A stretch of 64,000 nt of DNA from Alphaproteobacteria bacterium (GCA_965221125.1 CBDCRW010000002.1:1-64000); one strand, 5' to 3'. Counted from the stretch's first letter, positions 25,401 through 50,108 are shown. Made by a program: numbers and translations. Notes: generated from the letters alone by a model not told the origin.

Positions 25401-25415
25401 CTCCCCGTCCGGGCT

Positions 25416-25859: not shown

Positions 25860-26070
25860 CGACGATTCTCCTTCCCGGCCGGCGGCCAGCTGACACCCAT
25901 TTAGGGACGAGGTCGCCGGGGCGCAACCGCAGCCTCCCCCGTTGCCTCCCGATGTGTCCCGATTCCGCCACACGGCCGCCCCGCACAGCCTCGATTCCGA
26001 CACTCACGGGTCGGCAGGGGAGGTGAAGAGGGGCTTCCGTCGGGCGAGCCATCTCAGGGAGGAGAGGACC

Positions 26071-26619
26071 ATGACGCAGCTCGTCTATGCCGGCATCGGA
26101 TCGCGCGCCACGCCGCCTTCCGTGCTCGAAGCGATGACCACCATGGCCGCCTGGCTCGCGCGCCGCGGCTGGCACCTTCACTCCGGTGGGGCGGCGGGGG
26201 CCGACTCGGCATTCGCGGCTGGAGTCCCGGCCCAGCGCCGCACCCTCTTCCTGCCGTGGCCCGGATATCGCGGGAACGCGGGCCCGGATTGCCGCACGCT
26301 CAGTGCCGAGCGCGCAGCCCGCTGCCTCGCCATCGCGGCCGCGCTGCATCCCGCGTGGCACCGGTGCTCGCCGGCCGCCCGCAAACTGCACGCGCGCAAC
26401 GCGGCGATCCTGCTCGGCCAGGACGCCGACACGCCCGTCCATGCCGTGGTCGCCTTCACCTCCGGGGGCGCCATCACCGGAGGCACCGGCATGGGCATCC
26501 GCATCGCGCACGACCGGGGCATTCCCGTGCTGAACCTCGGCGCCATGCACCCGCGCGCGGTGTGCGAGCGGCTGGAGGAGATCCGCGCCGCGGCATCCCC
26601 GGGCATCCGCCACGTCTGA
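26071..26619 (+). CDS. SLOG-superfamily (DprA/Smf-like) protein
   Basis: YAGIGSR, SGGAAGADSAF, LHARN and GGTG; RBS GGAGGAG. Confidence 0.8.
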   Translation: MTQLVYAGIGSRATPPSVLEAMTTMAAWLARRGWHLHSGGAAGADSAFAAGVPAQRRTLFLPWPGYRGNAGPDCRTLSAERAARCLAIAAALHPAWHRCSPAARKLHARNAAILLGQDADTPVHAVVAFTSGGAITGGTGMGIRIAHDRGIPVLNLGAMHPRAVCERLEEIRAAASPGIRHV

Positions 26620-26648
26620 TCCCCGCACTTCGAACATCGGAGCACGCC

Positions 26649-27725
26649 ATGATCCGTTTCACGCACGGCGATATCTTCGCCCAACCTGCCGACGCCATCG
26701 TCAATCCCGTCAACTGCGTCGGCGTCGCAGGCGCGGGCCTCGCCCGCCAGTTCAGGCGCCGCCACCCCGACGCCTTCCTCGCCTACCGCCGGGCCTGCTC
26801 CGAGGGCCGCCTGCGGCCGGGCCGCATGTTCACGTTCGACACCGGCCGCGACCGGCCCCGGTGGATCGTCCACTTCCCCACCAAGCGTCACTGGCGCGAC
26901 CGCAGCGCGATCGGCGACATCGAGGCCGGGCTTCGCGGCCTCGCCGCAACCCTCGCCAGCCACGGCATCGGCTCCGTCGCCATCCCGCCGATCGGATGCG
27001 GCCTGGGCGGTCTCGACTGGCGCGCGGTGCGCCCCCTCATCACCGACTGTCTCGCGGACATCGCGGGCACGGTCATCGTTCTCGAGCCGGCGCCGGAGGC
27101 GGAGCCATGCGCAGGTGCGGGCGTCCGCTTACGAGAGGAGAGAGAGCCCATGCCCCGCAACACCACGAGCATCTTCGACCACGGCGCCACGCTGGTGCCC
27201 GACATCGTCACCGAGGCCGAGGAGCGCCGCATCCTGCTGCGCATCTCCCAGGCGCCCTGGATGACCGACCTCAGCCGCCGCGTGCAGCACTACGGATATC
27301 GCTATCAGTACCGCGGCCCCGCCAACGGGCGGCACGACCCGGCGCCCCCGTTCCCGCGCTGGGCCGAGGTCGTTGCCGATCGCCTGGCGCCGCACTTCGA
27401 CGGGCGGCGGCCCGAGCAGTGCATCGTCAACGAGTACCGGCCCGGCCAGGGCATCGGCATGCACGCCGACCATGCGTCCTTTGGCGACATCGTCGTGTCG
27501 CTCTCGCTCGGCGACGCCTGGACGATGAACTTCCGGCCCCGTTCGGCCCGCCCCTACGTCCGCGACGGGCTGGCGTCCGACGAGGTGGCGCTGCTGCCGC
27601 GCCGCTCCGCCCTCGTCCTGCGAGGGCCCGCCAGGAGCGCGTGGATGCACGGGATCGATCCCGCCGCCACTGCAGGCCGCAGCGAGACCCGCGTCTCCGC
27701 CACGTTCCGGACCCTGGCCGCTTGA
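26649..27725 (+). CDS. DarG/TARG1-type macrodomain read in frame into an AlkB-family 2OG-Fe(II) dioxygenase (internal RBS and ATG at 27150)
   Basis: GDIF, VNPVNCVGVAGAGLA.QF, FPTK.HW and GCGLGGLDW; then RRVQHYG, VNEY.PGQGIGMHAD, W.HGI and RVSATFR, with no stop between them. Confidence 0.85.
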   Translation: MIRFTHGDIFAQPADAIVNPVNCVGVAGAGLARQFRRRHPDAFLAYRRACSEGRLRPGRMFTFDTGRDRPRWIVHFPTKRHWRDRSAIGDIEAGLRGLAATLASHGIGSVAIPPIGCGLGGLDWRAVRPLITDCLADIAGTVIVLEPAPEAEPCAGAGVRLREEREPMPRNTTSIFDHGATLVPDIVTEAEERRILLRISQAPWMTDLSRRVQHYGYRYQYRGPANGRHDPAPPFPRWAEVVADRLAPHFDGRRPEQCIVNEYRPGQGIGMHADHASFGDIVVSLSLGDAWTMNFRPRSARPYVRDGLASDEVALLPRRSALVLRGPARSAWMHGIDPAATAGRSETRVSATFRTLAA

Positions 27726-27908: not shown

Positions 27909-28364
27909 ATGGCTTTCGGAGAGAACAGGGTGGTGCTGATCGGCCGCCTCGGCGACGACGTCGCCATCAACCAGCTGCAGAGCGGCGGGCGCGTTGCCAA
28001 CATGAGCATCGCGACCGACGAGTCCTACATCGACAAGCAGACCGGCGAGCGGGTCGACCGGACGGAGTGGCACCGCTGCGTCACCTTCCAGAACGGTCTG
28101 GTCGACATGCTGGAGAAGCACGCGAAGAAGGGCCGCCTGGTCTACGTCGCGGGCAAGCTCCAGACCCGGCGCTGGCGCAAGGACGGCGAGGACTCCGACC
28201 GGTTCTCGACCGAGGTCCTGCTGGTCCCCGGCGGGCGCGTGCAGTTCCTCGACAAGCCGGCCGGCGCCAACGGCAACGGCGCCCCGCCCGCCAACGGTGA
28301 GGCGGCCGCGACCGCCGAGACCGGCACCGCCGATCCCGTCGACGACGGAACGATCCCCTTCTAA
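27909..28364 (+). CDS. ssb: Single-stranded DNA-binding protein (resident copy)
   Basis: NRVVLIGRLG, TEWHR and VYVAGKLQTRRW; acidic tip DDGTIPF. Confidence 0.95.
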   Translation: MAFGENRVVLIGRLGDDVAINQLQSGGRVANMSIATDESYIDKQTGERVDRTEWHRCVTFQNGLVDMLEKHAKKGRLVYVAGKLQTRRWRKDGEDSDRFSTEVLLVPGGRVQFLDKPAGANGNGAPPANGEAAATAETGTADPVDDGTIPF

Positions 28365-28385
28365 GGGGAAGTTAGGTAGAAATGT

Positions 28386-28426
28386 AAAGCTCGCAGGGGT
28401 AACACCTTGCGGGCTTTCATTTTTTG
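28386..28426 (+). terminator. Intrinsic terminator inside the element's left end, serving ssb
   Basis: AAAGCTCGCAGG...CCTTGCGGGCTTT hairpin followed by a T run. Confidence 0.75.
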
Positions 28427-28439
28427 TTGAATTTCATGA

Positions 28440-28489
28440 TTGACACGTTTGGAGTCGCAATTCTAGGTAAGCCGGAACAAGGCAAGAGC
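28440..28489 (+). promoter_or_regulatory. Putative sigma70 promoter with imperfect LexA box upstream of the recombinase operon
   Basis: TTGACA at 28440-28445; GAAC-AAGGCAA-GAGC at 28475-28489. Confidence 0.4.
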
Positions 28490-28500
28490 GTAAACTTTCG

Positions 28501-29745
28501 ATGCCCGAGAGCGTCCGCAGAATCAGACTTCCCGGCGGCGAGACGCTCCCCGCCCTGGTCGAGCCCGGCTCGGCCCCCGCGCCCGAGCCGATACGGTATG
28601 CGGTCTCCATTCTCAGAAACGCCGGCCGCGCCGAGAACACGATCGAGGCGCACATGCGCGCGATCGCGGCGGCCCGGGTGTGGGCGCACTCGAACGGGCT
28701 CTCCCTCGAAGCACGCATGGCCACGGGCGCCGGTCTGGAGCTGCGGGAGGTCGAGAGTCTTTCCCATGCGCTGAAGACCGCCCGGGTTCCGGATCGGACC
28801 GAGCGTCCCCACCAAGCCAATGTCCTGCCGCTTTCCAGATCGGGCAAGGAGCTTCATCGGCACCTTCCCCACGACTGCGATGAGATGCTGGACCCCCAGA
28901 CCGGAGCCAACCGTGTGCGGTCCGTCGCTGCCTATCTCGACTGGCTTGCAAGCCACAGCCGTGCCGCCGGATCGCAGCAGCTCCTTCGCGACACCGTCAA
29001 GGCTCTGACCGCCCGGGCGAAGGTGGGCGCGCGTCAACCGTCCGAGCCCAGGAAGGGCCTGTCGCCGGAACAGCGCGACCGGCTGTTCGCCGTCATCGAT
29101 CCGTCCTCGCCGGAAAACCCGTTCCGGAGCGAGGCGGTTCGCTATCGCAACCTTGCCGTTGTTGCCTGCCTTGACGAGACCGGCATGCGCAGGGGCGAGC
29201 TTTGCGGCCTGAAGATCCCGGACATCGACTTCAGGAAACTGACGATCTCGATCCATCGGCGCCCTCCGGACCCCCGGGACCCTCGTCGGCAGAAGCCGAA
29301 GACCAAGTCCGGCGCACGGCCCGTGCCGATCAGGCCGGAGCTGGCGGACATCCTCTTCGCCTACCTGTCGGATTGGCGCCGGACCGAACCCGGCGCCCGG
29401 ATGCACGCCTATGTCTTCGTGTCCCATGCAGGAATCAGGCCGGGAGCGCCGTTGACCCCGAGAAGCGTGGGCAACGTCTTCGCTGCGCTCGAAAGCGTTC
29501 TCGGCTTCCGTCTCCATCCTCACCTGTTGCGCCACACCTGGAACGACAGGTTCTCGGCCGCGATCGACGGCAGGGCGGAGCGTGGCGATCGCACCCCCGA
29601 GGCGAGCGAGGAGCGCATCCGCAACTTCCTGATGGGATGGAGTCCGGATTCGAAGATGGCGGCGGTCTACACGCACCGTCACGTCGAACGGGCGGCCGAG
29701 GCCGCCCTGAGAGGCATGCACCAGGGATTGTTCGAGGGTGAGTAG
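28501..29745 (+). CDS. Tyrosine recombinase 1 (Tn554 TnpA-like)
   Basis: TGMRRGE, KTK, HLLRH, MGW and AVY. Confidence 0.9.
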   Translation: MPESVRRIRLPGGETLPALVEPGSAPAPEPIRYAVSILRNAGRAENTIEAHMRAIAAARVWAHSNGLSLEARMATGAGLELREVESLSHALKTARVPDRTERPHQANVLPLSRSGKELHRHLPHDCDEMLDPQTGANRVRSVAAYLDWLASHSRAAGSQQLLRDTVKALTARAKVGARQPSEPRKGLSPEQRDRLFAVIDPSSPENPFRSEAVRYRNLAVVACLDETGMRRGELCGLKIPDIDFRKLTISIHRRPPDPRDPRRQKPKTKSGARPVPIRPELADILFAYLSDWRRTEPGARMHAYVFVSHAGIRPGAPLTPRSVGNVFAALESVLGFRLHPHLLRHTWNDRFSAAIDGRAERGDRTPEASEERIRNFLMGWSPDSKMAAVYTHRHVERAAEAALRGMHQGLFEGE

Positions 29746-31225
29746 TCCGGGCGGATTGCAGCCTGCCGGCGCTCCGCGAGAGCGCGGCATCCATGCGGGA
29801 TTCGATTCCGGCGGCGACGTCTGGAAGATCGTGCTGGAGAAGGGCGTGACCCGCATCTCCTTCAAGCCGATACGAGATCATTGGGGCGCCGGGCACGCCG
29901 ACAACGTCAAGCAGGCTGCCCTTGCCTACATGGAAGATCGCTCCCCCGACACCGTGTTGGGGGGCGTCCAGGCCCTCGCAAGAATGGCGCGGGATGTCCC
30001 GGTCGGCGCCACCATCTCTGCGGCGGCTCTCATGGACTACCGGTCGCTGCTCGCTCGCGAGCAACTGCACTATCTGGGCCACGTCGCGGCGTTCCTGAAG
30101 TTCTGGGTCGCACGCGGCTACGCCGGGGTCGACCGCGACGTGCTGCAGTTCTTCAGCAGCATCAAGATACCCGGGAACGTCAAGGGCGCCGCCGTCCGCA
30201 CGCACCACCCCACGAAGGGTCCCTTCACCGATGTGGAGTTGCAGAGCATCACCCTTGCGGCACGCGAGGCGTATGGCGAGGGCCGCGTGAGCAGGCAGGA
30301 CTTCGGCATTCTTCTCACGCTGACCGCAACGGGGGCCCGGCCCGGCCAGCTGTCGATGCTGACTTGTGGCGATCTGGTTCCGCCTGCACCGGGATCGGCC
30401 GCATCTCGCCTCCTGGTGCCGTCTCTCAAGAAGAGGACGCCGAAGCGCCTCACGCGCGAGCGGGTCATCCCTGGCGAGCTTGCCGTTCTGCTTAGGGAAC
30501 TCGTCGAGGAGCGATCCCGCGACGAGCGCTTCCGGGGCATTCCGGTCGACCGGCGTCCGATCTTTGCCGTCGAGGCGACCGCCTTCGCATCGCTCGCGGA
30601 GGCACACATCGGCAGGGGCGGTGCCGGCCGCGCTCTGAGGCGCATCCAGAGCGCGCTCGGCCTTCGGTCGGCGCGCACTGCCGCTCCGATCAACCTGGCG
30701 CCCCGGCGGTTCCGGAGCACTCTCGGGACGCGTGCTGCCGATGTGGGTCACCCTCCTGTTCTGATCGCTCACCTTCTCGATCACACCGACCTCCAGCACG
30801 TCGGCGTGTATGTGGAGTCGCGCGGCTCGATCCAGGACCGCATGGACGCCGCCCTTCATGGCCGGGCGGAGCCGCTGGCCGGGCTGTTCAGGGGCACGAT
30901 CGTTGCGGGCGAGGTCGAATCCGGCGCCGGGGAAGCGCCGTCGCGTCGCGTTGCGTCCGCCGCCGGCGGAGGCGTGGGAACCTGCGCGGGCCCGCGCAGC
31001 TGTGTCCGTCTGGCGCCGCTTGCATGCTACACCTGCGCCGCGTTCCGTCCCTGGCGTGACGCGCCTCACGAGGATCTGCTGCAGTCCCTGGTCGAGGAGC
31101 GCAGGACGCTTCTCGCGGACGGGATCTCCCCGCAGGTGGCCGCCGCCAACGACGCAACCATCATGGCCGTCGCGGAGGTCGCCGATCGTTGCCGCGCGAT
31201 GCGGACGGGGGTGGCTCATGGCTGA
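29738..31225 (+). CDS. Tyrosine recombinase 2 with C-terminal Cys cluster
   Basis: TGARPGQ, RRFRST, LLDH and GVY; GTC...SC...ACYTC tail; overlaps the upstream stop. Confidence 0.88.
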   Translation: MSSPGGLQPAGAPRERGIHAGFDSGGDVWKIVLEKGVTRISFKPIRDHWGAGHADNVKQAALAYMEDRSPDTVLGGVQALARMARDVPVGATISAAALMDYRSLLAREQLHYLGHVAAFLKFWVARGYAGVDRDVLQFFSSIKIPGNVKGAAVRTHHPTKGPFTDVELQSITLAAREAYGEGRVSRQDFGILLTLTATGARPGQLSMLTCGDLVPPAPGSAASRLLVPSLKKRTPKRLTRERVIPGELAVLLRELVEERSRDERFRGIPVDRRPIFAVEATAFASLAEAHIGRGGAGRALRRIQSALGLRSARTAAPINLAPRRFRSTLGTRAADVGHPPVLIAHLLDHTDLQHVGVYVESRGSIQDRMDAALHGRAEPLAGLFRGTIVAGEVESGAGEAPSRRVASAAGGGVGTCAGPRSCVRLAPLACYTCAAFRPWRDAPHEDLLQSLVEERRTLLADGISPQVAAANDATIMAVAEVADRCRAMRTGVAHG

Positions 31226-33272
31226 GCTCGCGCTCTTCCGGCCGGCGGAGGCGCTCGATGCCGAAGCGAGGCTCGCCGAGTTCATCCGTCATGCGCGCGA
31301 CGACCTCACGGTGTTCGGCGCCGAGCTCGACTGGGACGCGCCGAGATGGGAGCTGCGCGGAGTTGCCACTGTGTCGGGCCGCAGCAAGAGCGTGCTTCGC
31401 CTCAACTGGGGTCATCCCCTGAAGAAAGCGCCAAGGTCGATCGAGCACTACGCGCCGTTCGGCGCCCGCAACGCCGACTTCTTCAAGGCGTACCTGCGCT
31501 ACAGGTATGGTCTTGCCCCACAGATGGCCCCTCAGCTGATGCTCTCGGCGATGCGGCATCTCGACAAGACTCTCGCCGAAGCTGGCAAATCGATTGCCGA
31601 CGCGCGGCCCGACGACTTCAACGCCGCCGCCGCGGCCTCTCGCTCTGCTTACAGCCGCCACACTGCGTATCGCGTCGGCCTGCAGCTTCAAGCGATCGCC
31701 GGCTTTCTCGACCATCACGGCCTCGTCGCGCGGCCTCTCGTCTGGACCTGCCCCATCAGGCGGCCGACGAGCTTCGATCGCATCGGCGTCGAACGCGAGC
31801 GGGCTCGGGCCCGGAAACTTCCCTCGGAACGCGCGCTTGCCGCGCTCGGAGAGGCATACCGCCGCGCCGAGCATCCAATGGACGTGATTGCCGCTTCCGC
31901 ATACGCCCTTCTCCTGGTGACGCACAGCCGCATCTCCGAGCTGCACCGGCTCGACGCCTACGATTGCGAAGTGGAGGCCGTCGAGAGCGGCAAGGACCGC
32001 TACGGCCTGCGCTGGTATCCGTCGAAGGGCGGCGAGCCCGAGACGCGCTGGATCCCGAGCGCGTTCGTGCCGCTGGCGAGGGACGCGCTGAAGCGCATTC
32101 GAGACGTCACCGAGCCCGCCCGCGCGCTTGCGCGCAGGTACATGGCCGGCGAGGACATCCTCCCGGGCGACGCCCCGGACGATCCTCTCGCCCGCGAGGG
32201 CTACATCAGCATGAGGAGTCTCGGAACGGCCGCCGATCCGAGGACCGTGCTTGTCGCGCTGCGCAGAAACGGATTCGATGTTCGCGCGGACCACGCAACA
32301 CAGCTGGGCGTCAAGCTCGCAATGAACGCCAAGCTTTATCTCCGCGCGCCGATCGAAGAAGGCTTTCGGGCGGAGCTCCCGCAAGGCTTCCCGCTGGCCG
32401 ATCCCAGATCCGGCCTCGGATACGACCGCGCGCTGCTCGTACGCACCGCTGACATGGCCCGGCAATCGTGCACTCTCTTCTGGCGCCTTTCCTGCGTCTC
32501 GACCAGCGAGATCAAGAACACCATGAACGGGAGAGACTGCACGAGCGATCAAAAGGCTGGATTGTTCGGCCGTCTCGGGCTGGTGGACGACGATGGCGAG
32601 ACCGTCCGCATCACGCCTCACCAGCTGCGCCACTACATGACCACGCTGGCGAACGAGGGGAACCTGTCGCAGCTCGACATCGCGAGATGGGCGGGCCGCA
32701 AGGACATCCGGCACAACGCGTACTACGACCACGAAACCGCCGATTCCCTCGTCTCCAAGGCGCGCTCTCTCGGCGGGGACATCTTCGGCAGCCCGATGAC
32801 GGCAACCCCTCAGCGGCCGGTGACCCCGCGGCAGCTGATCGAGGGCAGTCTCGCCGGGGTGCATCTGACGCGTTACGGCGCCTGCCTGCACGACTTTGCG
32901 GCGTCGCCCTGCCCGATGTACCGGGACTGCCTGAACTGCGTCGAGCACGCCTGCGTCAAGGGAGACGAGCGCGCCGAGCGCGCCCTGCGCGACCGCCTAG
33001 CCGTCATCCAGAAAGCTGTCGCGTCCGCGGAAGAGGCCGCAGCTATCGGCGAAGGCAACTCGGAGATCTGGCTCTCCCGCAAGAGGACCGAGCTTGCGCG
33101 CCTGCGCGAGCTCGTCGCCCTGATCGACGACGCGGCGATCGCGCCGGGCGCCGTCCTGAGGCTCGACGGCGCGGCACGCTATGCGATCGGCGGCGACGGG
33201 GCCGGTTCGGCGAAAGCCCTGCCCGGCCCCGGCCCGGCTCCCGATTCCTTACCCCGGCTACGGAAACCGTGA
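31218..33272 (+). CDS. Tyrosine recombinase 3 (large) with C-terminal Cys cluster
   Basis: HSRISE, HQLRH, WAGR and AYYDH; GACLHD...PCP...CLNC.EHAC; ATG 31218 overlaps the previous stop. Confidence 0.88.
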   Translation: MAELALFRPAEALDAEARLAEFIRHARDDLTVFGAELDWDAPRWELRGVATVSGRSKSVLRLNWGHPLKKAPRSIEHYAPFGARNADFFKAYLRYRYGLAPQMAPQLMLSAMRHLDKTLAEAGKSIADARPDDFNAAAAASRSAYSRHTAYRVGLQLQAIAGFLDHHGLVARPLVWTCPIRRPTSFDRIGVERERARARKLPSERALAALGEAYRRAEHPMDVIAASAYALLLVTHSRISELHRLDAYDCEVEAVESGKDRYGLRWYPSKGGEPETRWIPSAFVPLARDALKRIRDVTEPARALARRYMAGEDILPGDAPDDPLAREGYISMRSLGTAADPRTVLVALRRNGFDVRADHATQLGVKLAMNAKLYLRAPIEEGFRAELPQGFPLADPRSGLGYDRALLVRTADMARQSCTLFWRLSCVSTSEIKNTMNGRDCTSDQKAGLFGRLGLVDDDGETVRITPHQLRHYMTTLANEGNLSQLDIARWAGRKDIRHNAYYDHETADSLVSKARSLGGDIFGSPMTATPQRPVTPRQLIEGSLAGVHLTRYGACLHDFAASPCPMYRDCLNCVEHACVKGDERAERALRDRLAVIQKAVASAEEAAAIGEGNSEIWLSRKRTELARLRELVALIDDAAIAPGAVLRLDGAARYAIGGDGAGSAKALPGPGPAPDSLPRLRKP

Positions 33273-33273
33273 C

Positions 33274-33693
33274 ATGGCCCGGCACCTCACCGAGACCAAC
33301 GTCGAAACGCTCGCCAGGACCATCGGCACGCTCGAGGTGGCCACGTGGGGCGCGGTCGTGAGGCTGGCGCGGCGACGGCTCGGCCACGCCTACTCGCGCC
33401 AGGCGCTGTCCAGGCATGAACGGATAAGGACGGCGCTCGCGGCCCGCAGGGAGCAACTCAGGGGCAGCGGGGCGGGGCGGCGGCCGAGACCGAAGACCGA
33501 CACCGAAGCGGCCCTCCTCGAGCGCATCGATTCCCTGGAAGCGGACCTCTGCCGGCTTCGCGCCGAGAACGAGGCGATGATGACCCGGTTCGCCGTCTGG
33601 GCCTACAACACGCACGTTCTCGGCATTCCCGACCATCGGCTGGACGCTCCGCTTCAGCCGGTCGATCGAGAATATAGCGAGCATGACGCATGA
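33274..33693 (+). CDS. Small HTH/coiled-coil accessory protein (TnpC-like role inferred)
   Basis: TW...YSRQAL.RHERI followed by a coiled coil; directly follows recombinase 3. Confidence 0.7.
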   Translation: MARHLTETNVETLARTIGTLEVATWGAVVRLARRRLGHAYSRQALSRHERIRTALAARREQLRGSGAGRRPRPKTDTEAALLERIDSLEADLCRLRAENEAMMTRFAVWAYNTHVLGIPDHRLDAPLQPVDREYSEHDA

Positions 33694-34229
33694 GCAGGGG
33701 CAGCGGCGCGGAACGCGGCCGGCAGGCGGTGCTGCGCCTGCGCGAAGAGATCGACGCGCGCGAGGCGGCCGGCGAGACCTTGCCCATGAACGGCCGGGCT
33801 CTCCATCTGGCGAAGATCTGCCAGCTGGTCGGGGTTGGCCGGTCGACGGTGACGCAGAACCCGTCCTTCCGCGCCATGCTCAAGGACTACGCCGGCCGGA
33901 AGGGCGTGGCCTTCTCCGCCAGAGGATCGCCGCCCTCCGTGCACGACCGCCAGACCACGGGAGCTGTCGAGGCGCCGGGCGACGCCGGCGGGGAGGCCAT
34001 GGTGCCGGCCTCCCGCCTGCGCGAGGAACAGCGGCGCAGCGCGGCCGCCGAGCGCCGCGTCAGCGAGCTGGTCGCCAGGAACGCGGCGCTCATCGCCCGC
34101 CTGAGGCGCTATGAGGCTACCGATCAAGCGCTGATCGCCGCCGGTCGCCGCTACAGGCCCAGGCCGCCGGAGAAAGAGAACTCCGGCCCCGGACAGAGCC
34201 GCCTTCAGCTCGACGAGACGTCCGAATGA
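33690..34229 (+). CDS. Small HTH/coiled-coil protein
   Basis: LAKICQLVGVGRSTVTQNP HTH-like segment; C-terminal coiled coil; ATGA overlaps on both sides. Confidence 0.7.
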   Translation: MSRGSGAERGRQAVLRLREEIDAREAAGETLPMNGRALHLAKICQLVGVGRSTVTQNPSFRAMLKDYAGRKGVAFSARGSPPSVHDRQTTGAVEAPGDAGGEAMVPASRLREEQRRSAAAERRVSELVARNAALIARLRRYEATDQALIAAGRRYRPRPPEKENSGPGQSRLQLDETSE

Positions 34230-36205
34230 GCCGGCCGGGCGCAGCCGCCCGTGCCGCCGTCGAGGCCCCGATGCCGCGAAGGCCCGGCGCGCTCGCGGCG
34301 TACCTTGCCGAGGACCGGGACTTCCGCGGCATCGGCCCCGCGAAGGCCGCTGCCCTGGCAGCCGCATTCGGCGACGGCCTGCGTAACGCGCTCGACCGGA
34401 AACATCCCGAGGTCACCGCCATCCTCGGCGAGGAAACCGCCACCAACGCGTTCGCGGCCTACGAGTTGAAGAGCCCCGAGATCGAGCTTCTCGACTGGCT
34501 GGAAAGCCGGGGGGTCGCCCCCGCTGTCGGGACGCGTACCGCGATCAGGATCGCCCGCTGCTGGGGCCATGACGGCATCGACGCCCTGAAGGACAATCCC
34601 TACCTCCTCGCGAGCTTCCTGCCCTGGCCTGCAACCGACAGGGTCTGCCGCGCTCTCGGCGTCGCGCCCGACGATCCCCGCCGCGCCGTCGCCGCCGTCG
34701 AGGCCACCCTCTACCGCCGCCTCGACCGGAACCATACATGGACGTCCCGCGCCTCGGCAGAGGCCGGGGCCGCGAAGCTGCTCACCGGCGTAGCGGCTCC
34801 GGACGGCAGCCCTGCCGGACCCTGGGCGGTCGAGAGCGCCGTCGAAGCCGGCGGCGCCGAGCCCTTCGAGGACGGCGTTCAGCCCATGGGCGCGGCCGCC
34901 ATGGAGGCCTTCCTTGCCGAAGAGCTCGCACGCTTCGCCGCCGAAGTTCCGGCGTCCGACCTGGCCTTGCCAGCTGTTGCCGGCGAGGAGATCGGGCACG
35001 CCGTTGACGAGTATGAACGCCGCCGGCCGCACCGCCTCACGGGCCCGCAGAAAGCCGCCATCGCGGGCGCCTTCCGGCACCGGCTGTCGGTGCTGGGCGG
35101 CTATGCCGGCTCCGGCAAGACCACGTCCCTGCGCGGCATCTGCGAGCTGGCGGAACGCTTCGGCCGCGACACCGTGCTCATCGCGCTCTCGGGCCGCGCG
35201 GCGCAGCGCATGGCCCAATCGGCGGGGCGCCCCGCGATGACGATCGCCCGCTTCCTCAAGGAGACCTCCGGCGGCGCGGGTGCGCGCTTGCATGCAGGCA
35301 ACATCGTCATCGTCGACGAGGCGTCCATGGTCGACCTTCCCCTGCTCTGGCAGGTGGTGAGACGCATCGGGGACGCCTCCCTCGTTCTCGTCGGCGATCC
35401 CGCGCAGCTTCCGCCCATCGGCTTCGGCCTGACCTTCCACGTGCTCATCGAACATCCCGCCATCCCGAAGACCGTCCTCGACCGCGTGATGCGTCAATCG
35501 GCCGAGACCGGGATACCGGTCGTGGCCGAGGCCATTCGCAACGGCCGCCGCCCGGAGCTCGGCCCCTTCCGCGGCCTGGCGCCGGGGGTGACGTTCATCG
35601 ACGCCGCCCCGGAGGAGGCGTTCGACGTCATCTTCGATGCCGGCGCGCGGCTCGCCAAGAACGGATTGCGCCGGGGCGACGCTCAGATCGTCGCGCCGGT
35701 CAACGCAGGACCGGCGGGCATCCTCGCCATCAACCGCCGGTTCCACGAACTGCGGATGCAGGGCAGCGCCCATACCCCCCGTCTCGTTCCCGGCCGTGCC
35801 GACATCGCCGAAGGCGATCCCGTCATCTGGACCCGCAACGACTACGAGCGCGACCTCATGAACGGCTCCACCGGCCGTATCGTCGAAGCGCACCGGGACC
35901 ATGCGACGGCGGTCATCGACAGCCAGGAGCACCGGCTGGGCGCCGCCGACGCCACCAACATCGAGCTCGCCTACGCGATCTCCGTGCACAAGGCGCAGGG
36001 CTCGCAGTGGCCCCTGGTGATCGTGCCCGTCTACCGGTCCAGGATCCTCGACAGAACGCTGATCTACACCGCGGCCACGCGGGCCTCGGAGCAGGTCGTC
36101 TTCGTCGGAGACCGAAACGTCTTCGACGCTGCCGTCGCAACGGCGCCAAGGAATCTGAAGCGCGACATCACCCTGGCGTCGCGCTTGAGATCGATCGGGC
36201 AATGA
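34226..36205 (+). CDS. RecD2-like SF1B helicase
   Basis: HhH RGIGPAKA; GYAGSGKTT, VDEASM, GDPAQLPPIG, MRQ and AYAISVHKAQGSQW. Confidence 0.9.
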   Translation: MSRPGAAARAAVEAPMPRRPGALAAYLAEDRDFRGIGPAKAAALAAAFGDGLRNALDRKHPEVTAILGEETATNAFAAYELKSPEIELLDWLESRGVAPAVGTRTAIRIARCWGHDGIDALKDNPYLLASFLPWPATDRVCRALGVAPDDPRRAVAAVEATLYRRLDRNHTWTSRASAEAGAAKLLTGVAAPDGSPAGPWAVESAVEAGGAEPFEDGVQPMGAAAMEAFLAEELARFAAEVPASDLALPAVAGEEIGHAVDEYERRRPHRLTGPQKAAIAGAFRHRLSVLGGYAGSGKTTSLRGICELAERFGRDTVLIALSGRAAQRMAQSAGRPAMTIARFLKETSGGAGARLHAGNIVIVDEASMVDLPLLWQVVRRIGDASLVLVGDPAQLPPIGFGLTFHVLIEHPAIPKTVLDRVMRQSAETGIPVVAEAIRNGRRPELGPFRGLAPGVTFIDAAPEEAFDVIFDAGARLAKNGLRRGDAQIVAPVNAGPAGILAINRRFHELRMQGSAHTPRLVPGRADIAEGDPVIWTRNDYERDLMNGSTGRIVEAHRDHATAVIDSQEHRLGAADATNIELAYAISVHKAQGSQWPLVIVPVYRSRILDRTLIYTAATRASEQVVFVGDRNVFDAAVATAPRNLKRDITLASRLRSIGQ

Positions 36206-36509
36206 CCTCGTTCAGCGACACCCGCCTGCCGGCTGGCCCCATCGCGCCCTGATCGCCCCCATCCCGCGCCCCCCTGATCAAAACTGCGCCCTGGCGGCTT
36301 CCAATGCCGGCGCACGCCCGGCCGCAGCCGGCCTCTCGTCGCGTGCGATCCGTGAAGCCGTCGGCTACCTGTCGGCCACCGGGGCGCCGGGCCTGGCAGA
36401 GGTGGAGAGTGGCTGGAGGAGGATGAACGGAGAAGGGCGGGGAGAGAGATCCCCCGGCCCGCTTCGTTCCGCAACCATCGTCAGAAACTCGGATGAACAG
36501 GAGACGATC

Positions 36510-36929
36510 ATGAGCTTCGGGATGAACAGGGCTGAGCTCATCGGACGCTTGGGCGCCGATGCGACCATCACCAATCTCACGTCCGGCGGGCGCGTCGCCA
36601 ATATGAGCGTGGCGACCGACGAGGGGTACATCGACAAGACCGGCGAGCGCGTCGATCGCGTGGAATGGCACAAGGCGGTGACCTTCCAGGACGGGCTCAT
36701 CGGCATGCTCGAAAAGCACGCGAAGAAGGGTCGCCTGGTCTACGTCAGCGGCAAGCTCCAGACGCGCAGGTGGCGGAAGGAGGGCGAGGACAGCGACCGC
36801 TTCTCCACCGAGATCCTGCTGGTGCCCGGTTCGCGGATCCAGTTCCTCGAGCGCACCAACGGCACCGCCGCCACCCAGGACGACCGCCGGCCGGCAGAAG
36901 CCGGCCATGCCTCCGATTCGCCGTTCTAG
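36510..36929 (+). CDS. ssb: Single-stranded DNA-binding protein (element-borne copy)
   Basis: Close paralogue of 27909-28364; RBS AGGAG; ends DSPF. Confidence 0.93.
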   Translation: MSFGMNRAELIGRLGADATITNLTSGGRVANMSVATDEGYIDKTGERVDRVEWHKAVTFQDGLIGMLEKHAKKGRLVYVSGKLQTRRWRKEGEDSDRFSTEILLVPGSRIQFLERTNGTAATQDDRRPAEAGHASDSPF

Positions 36930-37019
36930 GAGCATGATCGCCGTCTACTCCCGATCGGGCCGGCGCTTCGCGCGTCGGCCCGTCCTTCCTGGCCTCGCAT
37001 CGGGTGCCGACGACAAAAG

Positions 37020-37068
37020 TGTAAACAATGTCGCCCATATCGGGCCAATCTCGGCGGCATTGTTTACA
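37020..37068. repeat. 16-bp inverted repeat near the element's right end
   Basis: TGTAAACAATGTCGCC ... GGCGGCATTGTTTACA (15/16). Confidence 0.75.
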
Positions 37069-37192
37069 AGAGATCCGCACGGAAGGGCACCGGAACACCA
37101 AAAGATCGTTGTGAATCAAACCACTCACTCAAACGTTACACGGTCCAACTTCCCATAACCGTTCTAGGCGGGTCCCTCCCTCCCGCTGACCC

Positions 37193-37236
37193 TGGCCGGT
37201 GCCGCGTCCCTCCCTGCGCGGCATCGGCCATTTTTT
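37193..37236 (+). terminator. Intrinsic terminator, probably the original ssb terminator displaced by the insertion
   Basis: TGGCCGGTGCCGCG-loop-CGCGGCATCGGCCA-TTTTTT about 25 bp after the orphan CCG TTC TAG. Confidence 0.8.
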
Positions 37237-37439
37237 CTGCAGCCCATTCAGAGCCGTCTCCGGCCGGACGGCACGGCTCGCGCTTCGCGCGTCGCCCGCC
37301 GTCCCGGCACCCCCAGGAGCCGAGAGGGGCCGGGACCCTGGCGCTCCCCCGGCAGCCGCGAGCGAGGTGCTCCCATGCTCTCCGATCCCGTCCATCGTCC
37401 CGGCCGCGCCAGTGCCGTCATGCGCGCCGGAGGCGCGCC

Positions 37440-38453
37440 ATGAACGCCACCGCCATCGCCGCAGCCCTCGGCGCGCGCGCCGAGGAGGTCTGCCGCCGCT
37501 ACCTCCCCCACGGCCGCAAGAACGGCCGCTACTGGACCGCCGGCGACATTCGCGGCGCCAAGGGGCGCTCGCTCTTCGTCCGCCTCTCACCGCCCGGCGT
37601 CCCCGGCAAGTGGACCGATGCCGCCGAGGGAACGCACGGCGACCTGCTCGACCTCATCCGCATCGCCTCCGGCGCGGGCTCCCTCCGCGCCGCCCTCGCC
37701 GAGGCGCGCGCCTTCCTCTCCCTGCCGCCCGCGGCCGCCGCTGCCGCCTCCGACACCTACGACCGCACGGAGGCGGCGCGCCGCCTGTGGCAGCGCTGCC
37801 GCGCCATCGACGGCACTCATGCCGAGGCCTATCTCCACGCCCGGGCGATCCACCGCTGCCGCTTCCCCGCGCTCCGCTTCCACCCCGCGCTCTTCTACCG
37901 CGACGGCGGCGCCATGCGCCGCCTGCCGGCGCTGGTCGCCGCCGTCACCGGCGCCGCAGGGGAACACCCTGGTCACGGCTCCATCACCGGCGTCCACCGC
38001 ACCTGGCTCGATCCCTTGCGGCCGGCCAAGGCGCCCGTGGCGCGTCCGCGCAAGGCGCTCGGCCGCGTCCACGGACTGGCCGTTCGCTTCGGCGGCTCGG
38101 GGCCCGCCACGCTGCTGGTGGGCGAGGGCATCGAGACGGTGCTCTCGCTGGTCACCGCCATGCCGGACACCGTCGCCGCCGCCGCGCTGTCTGCCGGCAG
38201 TCTCGGCGCGTTCGCGCCTCCTGCCGGCACCGCCCGGCTCGTCATCGCCCGCGACAACGACCCCGAAGGCGAGCGGGCGGCCGAACGCCTTGCCCGCCGC
38301 TGTGCGCGGGCCGGCGTCCCCGCCCATGTCCTCGTTCCCGAAGGCGCAGACTTCAACGACGACCTGCTCGCGCTCGGCTCCGCCGCGCTACGCGCGCGCC
38401 TCGCGCCCCTCTTCCGCTTCGCGGGAGAGAGAGGAGAGCAGGAGTCGGTGTGA
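37440..38453 (+). CDS. Primase-like TOPRIM domain protein
   Basis: GKWTDAAEG.HGDLLDLI, GVHRTWL, VGEGIET, ARDND and DFND. Confidence 0.88.
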   Translation: MNATAIAAALGARAEEVCRRYLPHGRKNGRYWTAGDIRGAKGRSLFVRLSPPGVPGKWTDAAEGTHGDLLDLIRIASGAGSLRAALAEARAFLSLPPAAAAAASDTYDRTEAARRLWQRCRAIDGTHAEAYLHARAIHRCRFPALRFHPALFYRDGGAMRRLPALVAAVTGAAGEHPGHGSITGVHRTWLDPLRPAKAPVARPRKALGRVHGLAVRFGGSGPATLLVGEGIETVLSLVTAMPDTVAAAALSAGSLGAFAPPAGTARLVIARDNDPEGERAAERLARRCARAGVPAHVLVPEGADFNDDLLALGSAALRARLAPLFRFAGERGEQESV

Positions 38454-38505
38454 ACAGGGCGAAGGAAGAGAGAACCCGCCCGCCAGGCACGAAGGGAGCA
38501 CCCGG

Positions 38506-38742
38506 ATGGGACGCTATCGCACCGATCTCACCTTCCGGCGCATCACGCCGGAGGAATCCCGCATCTACCAGGACGGCACCATCGTCGGCGAGGTCTACCG
38601 GCAGGAAGACGTCCTGAATGCGGGCTCGCACTACTACGTCATTCACCTGTCGGAGGACCATCGCGGCCCCGTCAAGGTCCACGACCGCGCGCGCATCCGC
38701 GCCGAGGCCCAGCGCCTCGTCGACACGCATCCCCTCTGGTGA
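38506..38742 (+). CDS. Hypothetical protein
   Basis: RBS GGGAG; MGRYRTDLTFRRIT... Confidence 0.6.
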   Translation: MGRYRTDLTFRRITPEESRIYQDGTIVGEVYRQEDVLNAGSHYYVIHLSEDHRGPVKVHDRARIRAEAQRLVDTHPLW

Positions 38743-38970
38743 GCGCCATGACGCTCGTGCCGGGGAACCGCCTTCCGGCGGTCGCGGCCAGGGCCGCGAA
38801 GCGGCTGCCGCCGCTCAGGAGTGGGGAGGGACTGCCCCCCGTCGTGACGCTTTATTGTCCCACGCCGTGCTCCTCCCTCAACCCCGCCAAGCGGCGGGGT
38901 CCTCCGCTTCGCTTCGGCCTCTCGCAAGGGCCCGGCCGCGCGCGCGCCAAGATTCAAGCGCGCGCGGCCT

Positions 38971-39320
38971 GTCTAGGGCGGGCCGTGAAAGTCGCCGACC
39001 GTGAAGTTGGCTTACGCGAACTCTCCACCGCTTCGCGTGAGGCACGCCGGCCCCTGAAGAGCGGGGCCGGCGCGTCGGCGCAGCGCTCCCTGCCCCCGGC
39101 GACTCGAACGGCTCGCCGCCCGGCGCTGATAGAGCGCCGGATCGGCGTCCGTCCGGTCGCCTCGATGCCCACTCATAACGCGGCTCAAGAACCCGAGGCA
39201 CTGCGCGCGCGGAACCACGCGCGCGCGGCGCCTCGCATCGCGCTGCGCCTCCCCAGGCCCGCAGAACGCCAACTTCCGCACCGAAATCGGCGACTTTCCG
39301 CACCGACTCCCGCCCAAGAC
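38971..39320. promoter_or_regulatory. Long fold-back structure, candidate ssDNA promoter (Frpo-like) or single-strand origin
   Basis: Nested complementary pairs GTCTAGGGCGGG/CCCGCCCAAGAC, GAAAGTCGCCGA/TCGGCGACTTTC and GAAGTTGGC/GCCAACTTC. Confidence 0.55.
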
Positions 39321-39415
39321 ACCCTACCGAGAGGTGAGTCGTGCGCGCGCCGTGAGCCAACAAAAGCATCACGACGGGGCACAGGGTCCCGGAGGATGAA
39401 CAGAAGGAGAGCGTC

Positions 39416-40435
39416 ATGCTCGATACAGACAGCCAGACCGCCGAGACCACCGAGACCTCGATGACCCACGCCTTCGCGAAGGCCGGATACACCATCCCCG
39501 GCATCGACCCCTACGACGTCGACGTCCGCGAGCCCCGGCACTACGCATCGCCCACCGCCGCCATCTGCGACCACGCAGCGCTGCACGGCGCCACCCCCGG
39601 CCCGGACGAGATCGACAACCGCTTCGTCTGGGACGAGGACGAGGCCATCGCCGGCATCGAGCAGACGGTGCACACGCTGATCCAGAGCGTCGCCCCGGAC
39701 GGCACGCAGCTCGCCGACGAGCGCGAACCGCTGCTGTGGGGCTTCGCGAACATGCTGCACGCACAGGCGCAGCGGATCGACCGCACCGTCGAGCGGATCG
39801 CCCAGCAGATGCGCGACCTCGAACGCGCCCAGGACGGCACCGAGGTGAAGGCCGTCGAGCTCGAGCGCCTCACCGATCGCGCCCACGATCTCGGCCGGCG
39901 CCGCGACGCGTTCGAGAAGATGCGCGACTTCGCCTCGGACGCCTACCGCGTCGAGACCGGCCAGGTCTGGCGCCCCCGCCACGGATCGCACACCTCGCAG
40001 ACGCGCCGGCTCACCTCGGCCGCCATCGACGCCCGCGACTTCCGGCGCGCGCGGAAGGACCGCGAGACCCAGGCGCATCTGCCCGACGGCACCCTCGTCG
40101 CCATCACCGGCGGGAAGAACGTCGCCGACGCGGACGCGGTCTGGACCACGCTGGACCGTGCGCGCGAGAAGTACGGCGACATGGTGCTGCTGCACGGCGG
40201 CGGCCCGGGCTACGAGAAGATCGCGGCGAGCTGGGCGGACGCGCGCGGCGTCGACCAGGTGGTCTGCCGCCCGGACTGGACCGCACACGGGAAGGCCGCG
40301 CCGTTCAGGAGGAACGACGAGCTTCTGAACCTGCTGCCGAAGGGCGTGATTGCGTTCCCCGGTTCGGGCATCACCGGGAACCTGGTCGACAAGGCCCGGC
40401 AGCTCGGCATCCCGGTCATGAGCGTCGCCGCCTGA
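39416..40435 (+). CDS. DUF2493 (YspA-like SLOG) domain protein
   Basis: C-terminal VAITGG, LLHGG, AAPFRRND and AFPGSGITGNL; RBS AAGGAG. Confidence 0.85.
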   Translation: MLDTDSQTAETTETSMTHAFAKAGYTIPGIDPYDVDVREPRHYASPTAAICDHAALHGATPGPDEIDNRFVWDEDEAIAGIEQTVHTLIQSVAPDGTQLADEREPLLWGFANMLHAQAQRIDRTVERIAQQMRDLERAQDGTEVKAVELERLTDRAHDLGRRRDAFEKMRDFASDAYRVETGQVWRPRHGSHTSQTRRLTSAAIDARDFRRARKDRETQAHLPDGTLVAITGGKNVADADAVWTTLDRAREKYGDMVLLHGGGPGYEKIAASWADARGVDQVVCRPDWTAHGKAAPFRRNDELLNLLPKGVIAFPGSGITGNLVDKARQLGIPVMSVAA

Positions 40436-41294
40436 TGGCGACGCTTCCGCGATCCGTCAGGGCCGGTCCTTCGCTTCGGCGAGGGATCGGCCTTTCTTTA
40501 TGCACCGTGCCAGGTGTCGCGCGTCGCGGCGCAGCGCTTCGCGCCGCTGCCGCTCGCGCTCCCGGCGGCGCCATCCCGCCATGCGTCAGCGCCTCAGCCT
40601 CGCGGCCAGCTCGGCGCTAACGCGCCGTCGCCGGCCGCTCGCCGGTCCTTCCTCTCCGCCGCCGCGCTTCACGCGCTGCCATCGGCAACTTCCCCCGTTC
40701 TCCCTCTTTCGGTCATCGCGTTCAACGCCGCCATCAACACATCGCTCCGAGCCCCGTTCGGCGAATTCTGGATCACCTTAGCCTGTCCGTAATCCTCGGC
40801 CGTGGTCGATGATGGCCCTTTGTCGTCCGCTGTTCCGGTCGGAAGGTATGGGCGCCCGCCCGGTCCTTCGGACCGGTCGCCGGGCTCTATTCCGCCGGGC
40901 GCGGCTTCGCCCCGCCCGGCTCCACGAAGCCCGCTTCGCGGTCTTCGCCGTCCCGGTGACGATCCCTGGCGCCTTCGCTCCCTTCGGTCGCTGCGCGCTG
41001 CGCTTGCGGGTGCGGGCATGAAATCCCGTGTCTCACCGCCGCCGTTGCTCGGTCGCTCCGCTCCCATCGCCGCCGGCTCCTCCCCACACCTTGCCCAGGC
41101 GCATTGCGTCGCGTCGCTCCGCCGCCGCTTACGCTCGCCTCGCCGCCCTTCGGCGGCTCGCGGTCCTCCACGGCCTCGCAACAGGCTCGGCGCTTTCGCG
41201 CCATCGCCGTTGCTCGCTCTCCCCACATCGACCGCGGCTCATCGCTCTTCGAGCGATATCGCCCCCTTGCGCTCGGCGCTTCGCGCCATGGCGC

Positions 41295-41600
41295 TCAGAA
41301 GGGATCCCCGCCTTCCCCCGAAGCCGCGGCATTCGCCACAGACTTCGCGGCCTTCCGTCCCGGCAGATCGCCCTTGTCGAGGAACGCCTTGAGGCTCCTT
41401 TCCCCGATCTCGATGCCTCGTGCTTTCAGCACTTCGTGCATCTGCGCCACCGTGACGCCCCTGGCCCGTTGCTCGACCATGCGGTCTCGCAGACGGTCCA
41501 GGACGTCCTTCAGCGACAGCTTCGGCGGCGCCAGCTTCGCCAGGTCCCCGTCTATGGCCTCGAAATCCACATCGGCTTCGTTGAAGCGCCTCGCCACCAT
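41295..41600 (-). CDS. Small oriT-adjacent DNA-binding protein (StbA/Mob accessory-like)
   Basis: RARGVTVAQMHEVLKARGIEIGERSLKAFL helical motif; divergent from the relaxase across oriT. Confidence 0.6.
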   Translation of the reverse strand: MVARRFNEADVDFEAIDGDLAKLAPPKLSLKDVLDRLRDRMVEQRARGVTVAQMHEVLKARGIEIGERSLKAFLDKGDLPGRKAAKSVANAAASGEGGDPF

Positions 41601-41701
41601 TGTATCCCCTTCCTTTTCCGACCACTACATCTGGTATGTCGCATGATCGCCCGACCGCCCCACCATGTCAACGGACGCCCCTTTCGGTCCCTGCGATGGG
41701 G

Positions 41702-41741
41702 CCCCACCCCGTGCGACCTCTCCCCACCCCGTGCGACCTCT
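41702..41741. repeat. Perfect 20-bp tandem direct repeat beside oriT
   Basis: CCCCACCCCGTGCGACCTCT x2. Confidence 0.85.
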
Positions 41742-41814
41742 CCCCGTCCCTGCCTTTGAACCCGCGCCTTGCGCGGAGTCTCCCCTGTTGAAACCACATA
41801 ACGTAGAAAAAGCC

Positions 41815-41840
41815 TTGTCACACCTATGCACTAAAGTGCG
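41815..41840 (-). other. MOBF-type oriT; predicted nic between 41820 and 41819 on the minus strand
   Basis: Minus strand reads CGCACT-TT-AGTGCATAGGTGT^GACAA: a short hairpin plus a sequence resembling F/R46-type nic sites, upstream of a MOBF relaxase. Confidence 0.7.
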
Positions 41841-42005
41841 AGTTGCCGATAAGTATGGCCAATGCTACAGTCGACGACGCATGGATGTCACGAGTCCATT
41901 GGGTAACGGTCTGAAGCACATGAGCACTCCCTCAATCGCTCTTGGCGCTGCGGCGCTGCCTGCAAGTACGGCCGCCCCGTATCCTCCCAGCAGGGCCACC
42001 GCACC

Positions 42006-50063: not shown

Positions 50064-50108
50064 GGTGCGATCCTCGTTCAGGGACTCCCTGGCCCCGGGA
50101 TCGTCACG

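Follow-up and report, generated by a model that had tools for sequence, protein, structure and literature searches.

A probable GInt at the end of an alphaproteobacterial ssb gene, with a helicase and a GinD-like protein as a paired accessory module

Among described mobile elements, the GInts, which PMC10121019 (in the part used here) also names the Tn6571 family, come closest to the locus reported here, an 8.8-kb element in a 64,000-nt stretch of an alphaproteobacterial genome (CBDCRW010000002.1:1-64000, assembly GCA_965221125.1). This full stretch is called the window, and all coordinates are positions in it. In the parts of the 2017 description drawn on here (PMC5385486), a GInt combines three recombinases and a small fourth protein, encoded in an operon, with a slot for cargo; the cargo region measures at least 2.5 kb, the 3′ end is short and AT-rich, and there are imperfect direct repeats of 10–11 nt. 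The same parts state that GInts excise as a circle with variable attachment-site cores, that replicative excision is possible for some of them, that all four gin genes are required for movement, and that GinD is TnpC-like. A synthetic derivative, pGInt0, keeps ginABCD and the two ends (5,802 nt from the 5′ side and 481 nt from the 3′ side) and has a vector as cargo; it integrates and excises. Ends of ssb genes are already named there as a favoured target, for example in P. syringae UMAF0158. The type elements are P. stutzeri DSM 4166 and Pht-PAI.

The element of the window spans 28359-37167. Its insertion point coincides exactly with the stop codon of an ssb gene that belongs to a relaxase-bearing mobile region. 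Our reading, to which we assign a probability of about 0.78, is that it is a GInt carrying a small gene termed ORF B, a RecD2-like helicase and an ssb gene of its own, and that B and the helicase form a paired accessory module that is not needed for recombination. The GInt family and insertion at ssb ends are known already, and the B–helicase module on GInts appears to be new. All named genes of the element lie on the + strand, in a window of about 67% G+C. The parts of the locus are the following.

27909-28364, + strand: target ssb (PF00436, 90 bits), ending ..DDGTIPF-TAA, intact after the insertion
28355-28365, + strand: attL, CCCCTTCTAAG, left copy of an imperfect 11-nt direct repeat
28365-28500, + strand: left end, 45% GC, with an inner inverted repeat GGGGAAGTT at 28365-28373 and TGTAAAG at 28383-28389
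28501-29745, + strand: ginA (YR1), tyrosine recombinase of 414 aa (PF00589, 54 bits)
29738-31225, + strand: ginB (YR2), GTG start, recombinase-like protein of 495 aa, 8-nt overlap with YR1
31218-33272, + strand: ginC (YR3), ATG start, large recombinase-like protein of 684 aa, 8-nt overlap with YR2
33274-33693, + strand: ginD (ORF A), the fourth core gene, 139 aa, starting 1 nt past the YR3 stop
33690-34229, + strand: ORF B, 179 aa, ATGA overlap with ORF A
34226-36205, + strand: RecD2-like SF1B helicase, 659 aa, ATGA overlap with ORF B
36510-36929, + strand: the element's own ssb (PF00436), 139 aa, with the non-canonical tail ..SDSPF
36930-37167, + strand: 3′ end, last 150 nt 49% GC, with CGTTACA at 37134-37140 and the attR core TTCTAG at 37162-37167
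37193-37230, + strand: native terminator of the target ssb, outside the element and pushed to its far side

Three recombinase-like genes and the small fourth gene form one overlapping operon at the 5′ end, and the operon junctions comprise, in order, two 8-nt overlaps, a 1-nt spacer and two ATGA overlaps. The original prediction, made from the window alone, had joined the three recombinases, two small proteins and the helicase through overlapping or abutting start and stop codons, and the gene calls agree with it. It also had ssb follow the helicase; this holds for the order but not for coupling, because a gap of 304 nt separates the two genes and ssb is thus not translationally coupled to the helicase. 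Alignment with the upstream ssb makes the ATG at 36510 a likelier start for the element's ssb than 36402. The prediction that no other cargo is present is borne out, since the element, once its ends are fixed, consists of seven genes only.

The four core proteins differ in how readily they are recognised. GinA has the motifs GMRRGE, HLLRH and VYTH, and its homologues occupy the equivalent position in related loci. GinB scores 355 bits against the NCBIfam model NF041502 ('integrase_1', cut-off 350) and 21 bits against PF00589, which is below the cut-off. GinC, with a Cys/His-rich C-terminal part, reaches 18 bits against PF00589, also below the cut-off; its residues R238 (in HSRISE), K270, H468, R471, H472 and Y503 are invariant in an alignment of 14 sequences of its clade. 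GinD matches no family in Pfam or NCBIfam.

A homologue search with GinC returned 96 clusters in a large protein collection, many of them from contigs of 8.7–8.9 kb. Scanning one genome per species yielded 80 loci, nine close (68–80% identity) and 71 distant (30–38%). The close loci come from alphaproteobacterial and Gemmatimonadota assemblies, and the distant ones from Proteobacteria and a few other phyla. The order GinA, GinB, GinC, GinD (ORF A) is kept in related loci wherever the contig permits. A tblastn match to ginD lies directly 3′ of ginC in 78 of the 80 loci, the two without one being loci whose contigs stop at most 262 nt after ginC (L026, L074). This gene order is far beyond chance, recurring in 80 loci of other genomes.

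Architecture, target, ends and an NCBIfam match probably place the element among the GInts. It has ginABCD at the 5′ end, cargo (33690-36929) between ginD and a short AT-rich 3′ end, imperfect direct repeats of 10–11 nt, strict site specificity for the end of ssb, variable att cores, and no transfer genes of its own. It differs from published GInts in being very small, with 8.8 kb where PMC10214605 quotes a published median of 34.9 kb, in a cargo limited to B, helicase and ssb, and in the alphaproteobacterial and Gemmatimonadota hosts of its clade. Moreover, GinC has the full recombinase-type residue set here, whereas the 2017 paper, in the part used, reports the first arginine of GinC as missing.

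The original prediction took Tn554 and the RIT elements as the known systems for comparison and thereby omitted the GInts, with their three recombinases, fourth gene and cargo slot (PMC5385486, same parts). Members of the Tn554 family resemble the element in combining tyrosine recombinases with a small TnpC-like protein, in their strict target and in a short core that can differ between the junctions. However, they have two recombinases (TnpA, TnpB) together with TnpC, rather than the three recombinase-like genes and small gene found here, and they occur in Firmicutes, use another target and carry no helicase. RIT elements also have three tyrosine recombinase genes in a row (RitA, RitB, RitC), but the proteins measure 315–410 aa, all with the catalytic tyrosine, the terminal inverted repeats are 34 bp long, and there is neither a fourth gene nor cargo (PMC10214605). 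In contrast, the proteins of the window's element measure 414, 495 and 684 aa, a fourth gene and cargo are present, and the inverted repeats reach only 8–9 nt.

Two further systems, both compared by description only, are of interest for the mode of movement. The recombination core of the SE elements comprises four genes and includes a large, unusual protein in the middle; these elements behave in a copy-out-like manner with a 6-bp footprint, and offer a published frame in which help from a helicase would be plausible; by published account, however, SE and GInt proteins cluster apart. The word helicase is absent from the text of the SE paper. In Gamma-Mobile-Trio (GMT) islands of the VPaI-6 type (bioRxiv 10.1101/2023.03.28.534373), recombinase-type genes likewise mark the 5′ border, replicative transfer proceeds via a circle, and the islands often carry a homologue of the gene into which they insert. 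There is also a link through ORF B, which falls weakly into an NCBIfam family named after VPA1267, a gene numbered next to gmtX (vpa1268). GMT islands differ in having two recombinases and a small StbA-like GmtX, and in the inverted repeats at their insertion sites.

The ends of the element were set by aligning the flanks of the five full copies that the window's own genome contains. The two ssb genes enclose 8145 bases, found five times at 100% identity, on contigs C2, C4 and C5 and twice on C7, and a sixth, partial copy stands at the start of C4 (C4:1-1847). The copies are identical from TTCTAA (28359) through ..CCCATAACC (37160). Beyond this point a 7-nt stretch (37161-37167) varies between them, reading G or A, then TTCT, then AG, AA or GA; the right cores of otherwise identical copies are G-TTCTAG, A-TTCTAA and A-TTCTGA, and thus include all three stop codons. 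On the left, the attL core TTCTAA (28359-28364) is the Phe codon and stop codon of ssb. The left cores all read TTCTAA and the genome's unoccupied ssb genes have TAG or TGA as their stop, so the attL stop codon may come from the element. The two direct repeats, CCCCTTCTAAG (28355-28365) and ACCGTTCTAGG (37158-37168), match at 8 of 11 positions.

Within these borders, the left end holds a terminator-like hairpin (28386-28417), and most relatives have a GTAAA(C/T) motif 20–27 nt past the ssb stop. The 3′ end contains a palindrome with arms at 37020-37043 and 37045-37068, TGTAAACAATG..CATTGTTTACA, and the right inner inverted repeat AACTTCCC at 37147-37154; the longest terminal inverted repeat found is 8–9 nt. 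The right ends of relatives share the motif ATAACCnTTCTRR, and the joint of a circle or tandem is predicted to read ..CCCATAACCnTTCTAR to GGGGAAGTTAGG... No trustworthy junction of a circle or of an empty site appeared in the contigs of the sequencing runs, the only form in which the runs were searched. Joints skipping about 8.6 kb were discarded, as they link two ssb paralogues and have sides of at most 30 letters.

The flanks of the copies corroborate these borders. At C4:982540 and C5:723302 the genome has ssb genes without an island, and the DNA 3′ of these genes is homologous to the right flanks of copy C7a and the window copy, so that they serve as empty sites; the flank past attR is homologous to the DNA 3′ of the ssb stop at C4:982540. 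Contigs from sequencing run X1 include one unitig of 8802 nt that equals exactly 28359-37160, with no difference, at a depth of 97.6 against 18–21 in the flanks. The span and depth of this unitig support both ends and a copy number near five. The left flank is an ssb 3′ end in four of the five full copies, with three different alleles represented in the genome. To the left of the C5 copy (C5:55514-57121) lie an IS110-type transposase gene and a 21-codon ORF ending ..GGFPF-TAA, with no ssb; this site is probably rearranged, its right flank matching that of the window. The copies stand in four distinct flank contexts (C2, C4:651 kb, C7 and C5), and the island has reached at least three ssb alleles, with about five copies in the genome.

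Two minor points concern these copies. One full copy, C7b, carries a later insertion of about 2.8 kb within the island's 3′ end, directly past the ssb stop (C7:37016-39819). One idea considered was that read-through into host-element genes further downstream is restored by the element's ssb; it was dropped, since the native ssb terminator lies directly outside attR.

Relatives share the preference for the end of ssb. Among 58 related loci with at least 900 nt of flank, at least 45 have an ssb gene ending directly upstream of ginA. Of these 45 targeted genes, 44 end in ..PF-stop, 41 in DDIPF or DEIPF, and 40 have their stop 120–200 nt before ginA. Inspection by eye added three loci with a ..IPF-stop tail and showed one locus behind another GInt in tandem. 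Relatives at 30–36% identity include Pseudomonas loci at ssb (L042, L049, L050, L052). GInts also occur in tandem behind one ssb: in L077, a helicase-bearing island of 8.3 kb is directly followed by a second ginABCD-B unit, and L034 and L035 lie on the same contig.

The distribution of the helicase decides whether it belongs to the core. The protein has the domains AAA_30, AAA_19, HHH_RecD2, SH3_13 and UvrD_C_2, with Walker A, DEASM, GDPAQLPP and VHKAQGS intact. Its best solved relative is RecD2 of Deinococcus radiodurans (PDB 3e1s, E 1e-47), with which it shares the domain order (HHH, 1A/2A motor, SH3, C-terminal) and the intact motifs; it differs in forming a lineage of its own tied to gin operons and ORF B. 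Its full-length score against the RecD2 model TIGR01448 is 338 bits, under the cut-off of 500, and we therefore call it RecD2-like, the domain set being the same. The helicase is present in eight of the nine close loci, the exception being L017, but in only 13 of the 63 distant loci with at least 2600 nt of DNA after ginD; the other 50 have none. One further distant helicase locus is cut by a contig end, and another contig ends directly after B.

Element sizes give the same picture. Right ends were searched for first as exact inverted repeats, which found few; the motif ATAACCnTTCTRR did better, and many ends lie beyond the 10-kb flank, so that sizes are available for a minority only. Two elements of about 5.7 kb, sized by the right-end motif, hold ginABCD only (L021, L080). 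Three of about 8.3 kb have B and the helicase as sole cargo (L020, L055, L077), and three of 9.2–9.4 kb match the window in content (L011, L016, L013). Within the close clade, L017 is an element of about 6.1 kb with ginABCD, ssb and a recognisable right end, and with neither B nor helicase. L015 has B and a helicase broken by an insertion sequence (IS), and no ssb. On a GinC tree of 73 rows (21 with helicase, 46 without, six undetermined), presence of the helicase requires 11 changes, and at least 10 gains or losses follow from the well-supported branches by themselves. The absence of the helicase from most homologous elements, the natural ginABCD-only elements and the movement of pGInt0 without a helicase together show that it is not a core component. 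The proposal that the helicase is core machinery rather than cargo is thus contradicted by the very pattern the original prediction had named as fatal to it; what survives is that the helicase is linked to the element, not that it is indispensable.

The element's own ssb is a separate item of cargo, its presence being independent of the helicase. L017 has ssb without B or helicase and L015 has B and helicase without ssb, which means that helicase and ssb are no coupled pair, and no ssb was found in the 7 kb downstream of the helicase in L010; the suggestion that the two are jointly core falls with these loci. Element-borne ssb genes are confined to the close clade. That of the window belongs to the type of ssb seen on mobile elements. 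Its identity is 76% to the target ssb and 67–76% to the occupied and empty ssb genes of its own genome whose products end in ..PF, against 38–40% to the ssb genes targeted in L010, L011, L013 and L016. The tails of element-borne ssb genes are non-canonical, SDSPF in the window (36915-36929) and TELTF, SDLPF and DLPS among L011, L013, L016 and L017. This drift may spare the element from its own kind, or it may reflect relaxed constraint without selection.

B and the helicase, compared across loci, appear to be one old, strictly paired accessory module that is inherited alongside the gin genes, with many losses. The position of the module is fixed, always first after ginD and ahead of variable cargo. 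An ORF B profile places B immediately 3′ of ginD in 21 of 22 helicase loci (exception L066), and detects it in none of the helicase-free loci apart from one cut by a contig end. A reverse search, starting from the helicase in 400 other genomes of the phylum, gave 14 loci in 12 genomes at E ≤1e-40. Seven of these loci have B upstream, six of the seven with gin-type recombinases further upstream and two with ssb; the seven B-less loci have neither gin-type recombinases nor ssb. All seven VPA1267-family matches in the genomes of this search are these B genes, three of them above the curated cut-off.

Phylogeny agrees with this pairing. A tree of 32 helicases has one branch (SH-aLRT 100) that separates the 25 linked to B or gin genes from the seven unlinked ones; L066, the sole linked helicase without B, falls closest to the latter, a placement with weak support. 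Distances between helicases correlate with those between GinC proteins at a Mantel r of 0.80 (0.70 in 11 distant rows), a value that none of 2000 permutations reached, and the two trees contain the same major groups. The original prediction had proposed tree congruence and co-occurrence as checks. The helicase tree broadly agrees with that of GinC, and B co-occurs with the helicase; the helicase does not co-occur regularly with the recombinases in the distant loci. The module is also not confined to islands that target ssb, because locus L108 (G328:C10) has three recombinase-like genes, a small gene, B and a RecD2-like helicase behind nth (endonuclease III), beside an rnf gene. The B gene of L108 scores above the VPA1267 cut-off.

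ORF B itself reaches 32 bits against NF040697 (VPA1267_fam), below the cut-off of 90. The B genes of three relatives reach 132–193 bits and align with it, which makes the window's B a distant member of a wider VPA1267 family. By profile comparison (hhalign), ORF B matches GinD with a probability of 92% and E 5e-7 over 78 columns that include the coiled coil, and it is a putative distant paralogue of GinD. Its structural model (pLDDT 73) has a helix-turn-helix-like region and a long C-terminal helix. A Foldseek search of this model against the PDB gave no match at E ≤0.001, and the ESM Atlas yielded leads only, to VPA1267 and DUF6262 clusters. We infer that the module serves the element, although recombination itself does not need it.

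By the circle route taken from print, GinA, GinB, GinC and GinD would carry out site-specific recombination between the joined element ends and the last codons of ssb (..ATH CCN TTC stop), and insertion would keep the ssb reading frame whole. As the island sits at the ssb of a relaxase-bearing mobile region, it can be carried along when that region moves. Tentatively, and as a possibility rather than an expectation, B, being GinD-like and putatively binding DNA or the complex, may bring the 5′-3′ helicase to the recombination complex or to nicked ends. Such recruitment would favour replicative (copy-out) release or upkeep of the circle. A bolder version, which we regard as doubtful, makes the B–RecD2 pair the island's own copy-out motor, with B, a duplicated GinD, as the dock for the helicase on the recombination complex. 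Once one strand has been exchanged, the helicase would peel off or help replicate a circular copy while the donor stays in place, and the SSB, with its drifted tail codons, would coat the strand and offer no landing site for a second copy. If true, this would account for the signs that excision is replicative in GInts, SEs and GMT islands, together with the spread to five sites, and would provide a two-gene handle on how such islands multiply. Replicative movement is hinted at in parts of the GInt, SE and GMT papers (PMC5385486; bioRxiv 10.1101/2023.03.28.534373).

Other explanations must be weighed against the reading of an accessory module. The tight translational coupling of ginD, B and helicase, the retention of the helicase in eight of nine close relatives, the roughly five identical copies in the genome and the possibly replicative excision mentioned in part of the GInt paper could all suggest that helicase and SSB are core machinery and that helicase-assisted or replicative transposition is obligatory. 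This is very improbable given the 50 distant relatives that have enough DNA and no helicase, the ginABCD-only elements of 5.7 kb, the composition of L017, the lack of ssb in L015 and in the 7 kb downstream of the L010 helicase, and the sufficiency of ginABCD and ends for pGInt0 (in the part of the 2017 paper used). It is hardly credible that the element is inert and present only once, its multiple copies being artefacts of assembly: two copies do stand at contig starts (C7:816, C4:1-1847) and three beside the SGQPFPF ssb allele share a left flank, but the depth of the unitig in the X1 reads is about five times that of its flanks, there are four distinct flank contexts, and the 2.8-kb insertion sets one copy apart. 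A suspected link between the helicase and high copy number was dropped, as relatives have one or two copies and draft assemblies cannot be counted.

A further view makes B and the helicase ordinary cargo, with a function in the host or against phages or other mobile DNA and no role in movement of the island. GInts carry defence systems (PMC10121019, in the part used), and on the IncF plasmid pSD_88 (NC_019105.1, 16454-27213) the order is ssb, integrase, integrase, two hypothetical proteins and, as first cargo, avs4. The helicase matches PADLOC models, namely typeIV_RecD (171 bits) and the candidate systems PDC-S68 and PDC-M16A, and the at least 10 gains or losses on the GinC tree would suit exchangeable cargo. 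In L010 the helicase is followed by what we take, from its N-terminal sequence, to be a type I restriction-modification methylase. We consider the cargo view unlikely, because the PADLOC matches span the generic helicase core only and B matches no PADLOC model, because the module always comes first after ginD and before variable cargo, because B is GinD-like, and because linked helicases lie on one side of one branch with distances that track GinC, which is unexpected for swapped cargo. It is quite improbable, in turn, that helicase and SSB aid riding on conjugative DNA, either by acting on the transferred single strand in the recipient, the role proposed for the ssb genes in plasmid leading regions, or by standing in for a relaxase's helicase part. 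The target region has a TrwC relaxase 5 kb downstream, and 10 TrwC matches were counted in the genome. In its core the helicase is similar to the corresponding part of TraA/TraI relaxases (TIGR02768, 117 bits), and GinC relatives at 30–33% identity occur in 42 plasmid records, 29 of them typed conjugative; the whole element had no megablast match among plasmids. However, several helicase-bearing relatives adjoin ssb genes only 38–41% identical to that of the element, presumed chromosomal and differing in type from the 67–76% identical genes of the window's genome, the element has no visible relaxase or oriT, and ssb is absent from those distant helicase-bearing elements whose right end was found, with no tblastn match in the available DNA of the others.

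Several points weigh against the favoured reading of a GInt with an accessory B–helicase module. The assignment to the GInts draws on architecture, target, ends and the NCBIfam match, and homology of YR1–3 and ORF A to the proteins of the type Pseudomonas GInts is presumed. pGInt0 belongs to another GInt family and another host, so the case for dispensability in this clade comes from natural variants whose mobility is presumed. The agreement between the helicase and GinC trees may partly reflect both genes tracking their hosts, which are partly shared within groups, and it is therefore consistent with joint inheritance without proving it. The similarity between B and GinD extends over a coiled coil, a feature that can raise profile scores artificially. 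Of the copies, the three next to the SGQPFPF allele stand at contig ends or close to them, and they may partly be one locus assembled repeatedly; close relatives carry one or two copies, so that five copies are no general trait of helicase-bearing elements. Finally, helicase activity, contact between B and helicase, a circular form and replicative transfer are hypothetical for this element.

The movement of GInts, SEs, GMT islands and Tn554 is poorly understood, and several papers suspect a replicative route and name no driving protein. A helicase with a dedicated GinD-like partner is a concrete candidate for such a driver, and the module travels with recombinase genes across Alpha-, Beta- and Gammaproteobacteria and beyond. 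The word 'helicase' is absent from the main texts of PMC5385486, PMC10214605 and the 2024 GInt preprint, and the supplementary cargo tables of the 2017 paper may list helicases; a literature search found no paper linking GInts (or Tn6571, or three integrases) with a helicase. For this window the result is mostly corrective, in that the element belongs to a described family and its helicase and SSB are optional. The window also illustrates how an island without transfer genes can spread, its landing site being the near-universal DNA of the SSB tail, which occurs on plasmids and transferable elements as well.

The surroundings of the island contain further mobile-element and other genes. Downstream, at 36930-46106, lie genes for a DUF7146-Toprim protein, a YAcAr (SLOG) protein and a TrwC relaxase-helicase of 1399 aa. 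A search of the genome with Pfam VirB4 (PF03135) gave no match, and for this reason the host region is called relaxase-bearing rather than conjugative. Upstream of the targeted ssb, 19551-24134 and 24606-27725 encode a Strawberry-notch-type helicase of 1527 aa (AAA_34, Helicase_C_4) with a weak methyltransferase match; the helicase gene is followed by a GmrSD_C/Excalibur protein and then by an ORF with Macro and 2OG-Fe(II) oxygenase domains. Two tandem P4-type integrase genes (Arm-DNA-bind_3, Phage_int_M, Phage_integrase) occupy 4519-6881 on the minus strand. Also on the minus strand, 47935-50792 holds a Mu/Tn7-like module made up of an rve protein with a Mu-transposase C domain, a TniB-like AAA_22 ATPase and an ORF of 227 aa, and an IS110-family transposase gene is located at 59847-60830. 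Parts of the stretch occur in 20 sequencing runs from nine studies, many of them labelled sponge metagenome.

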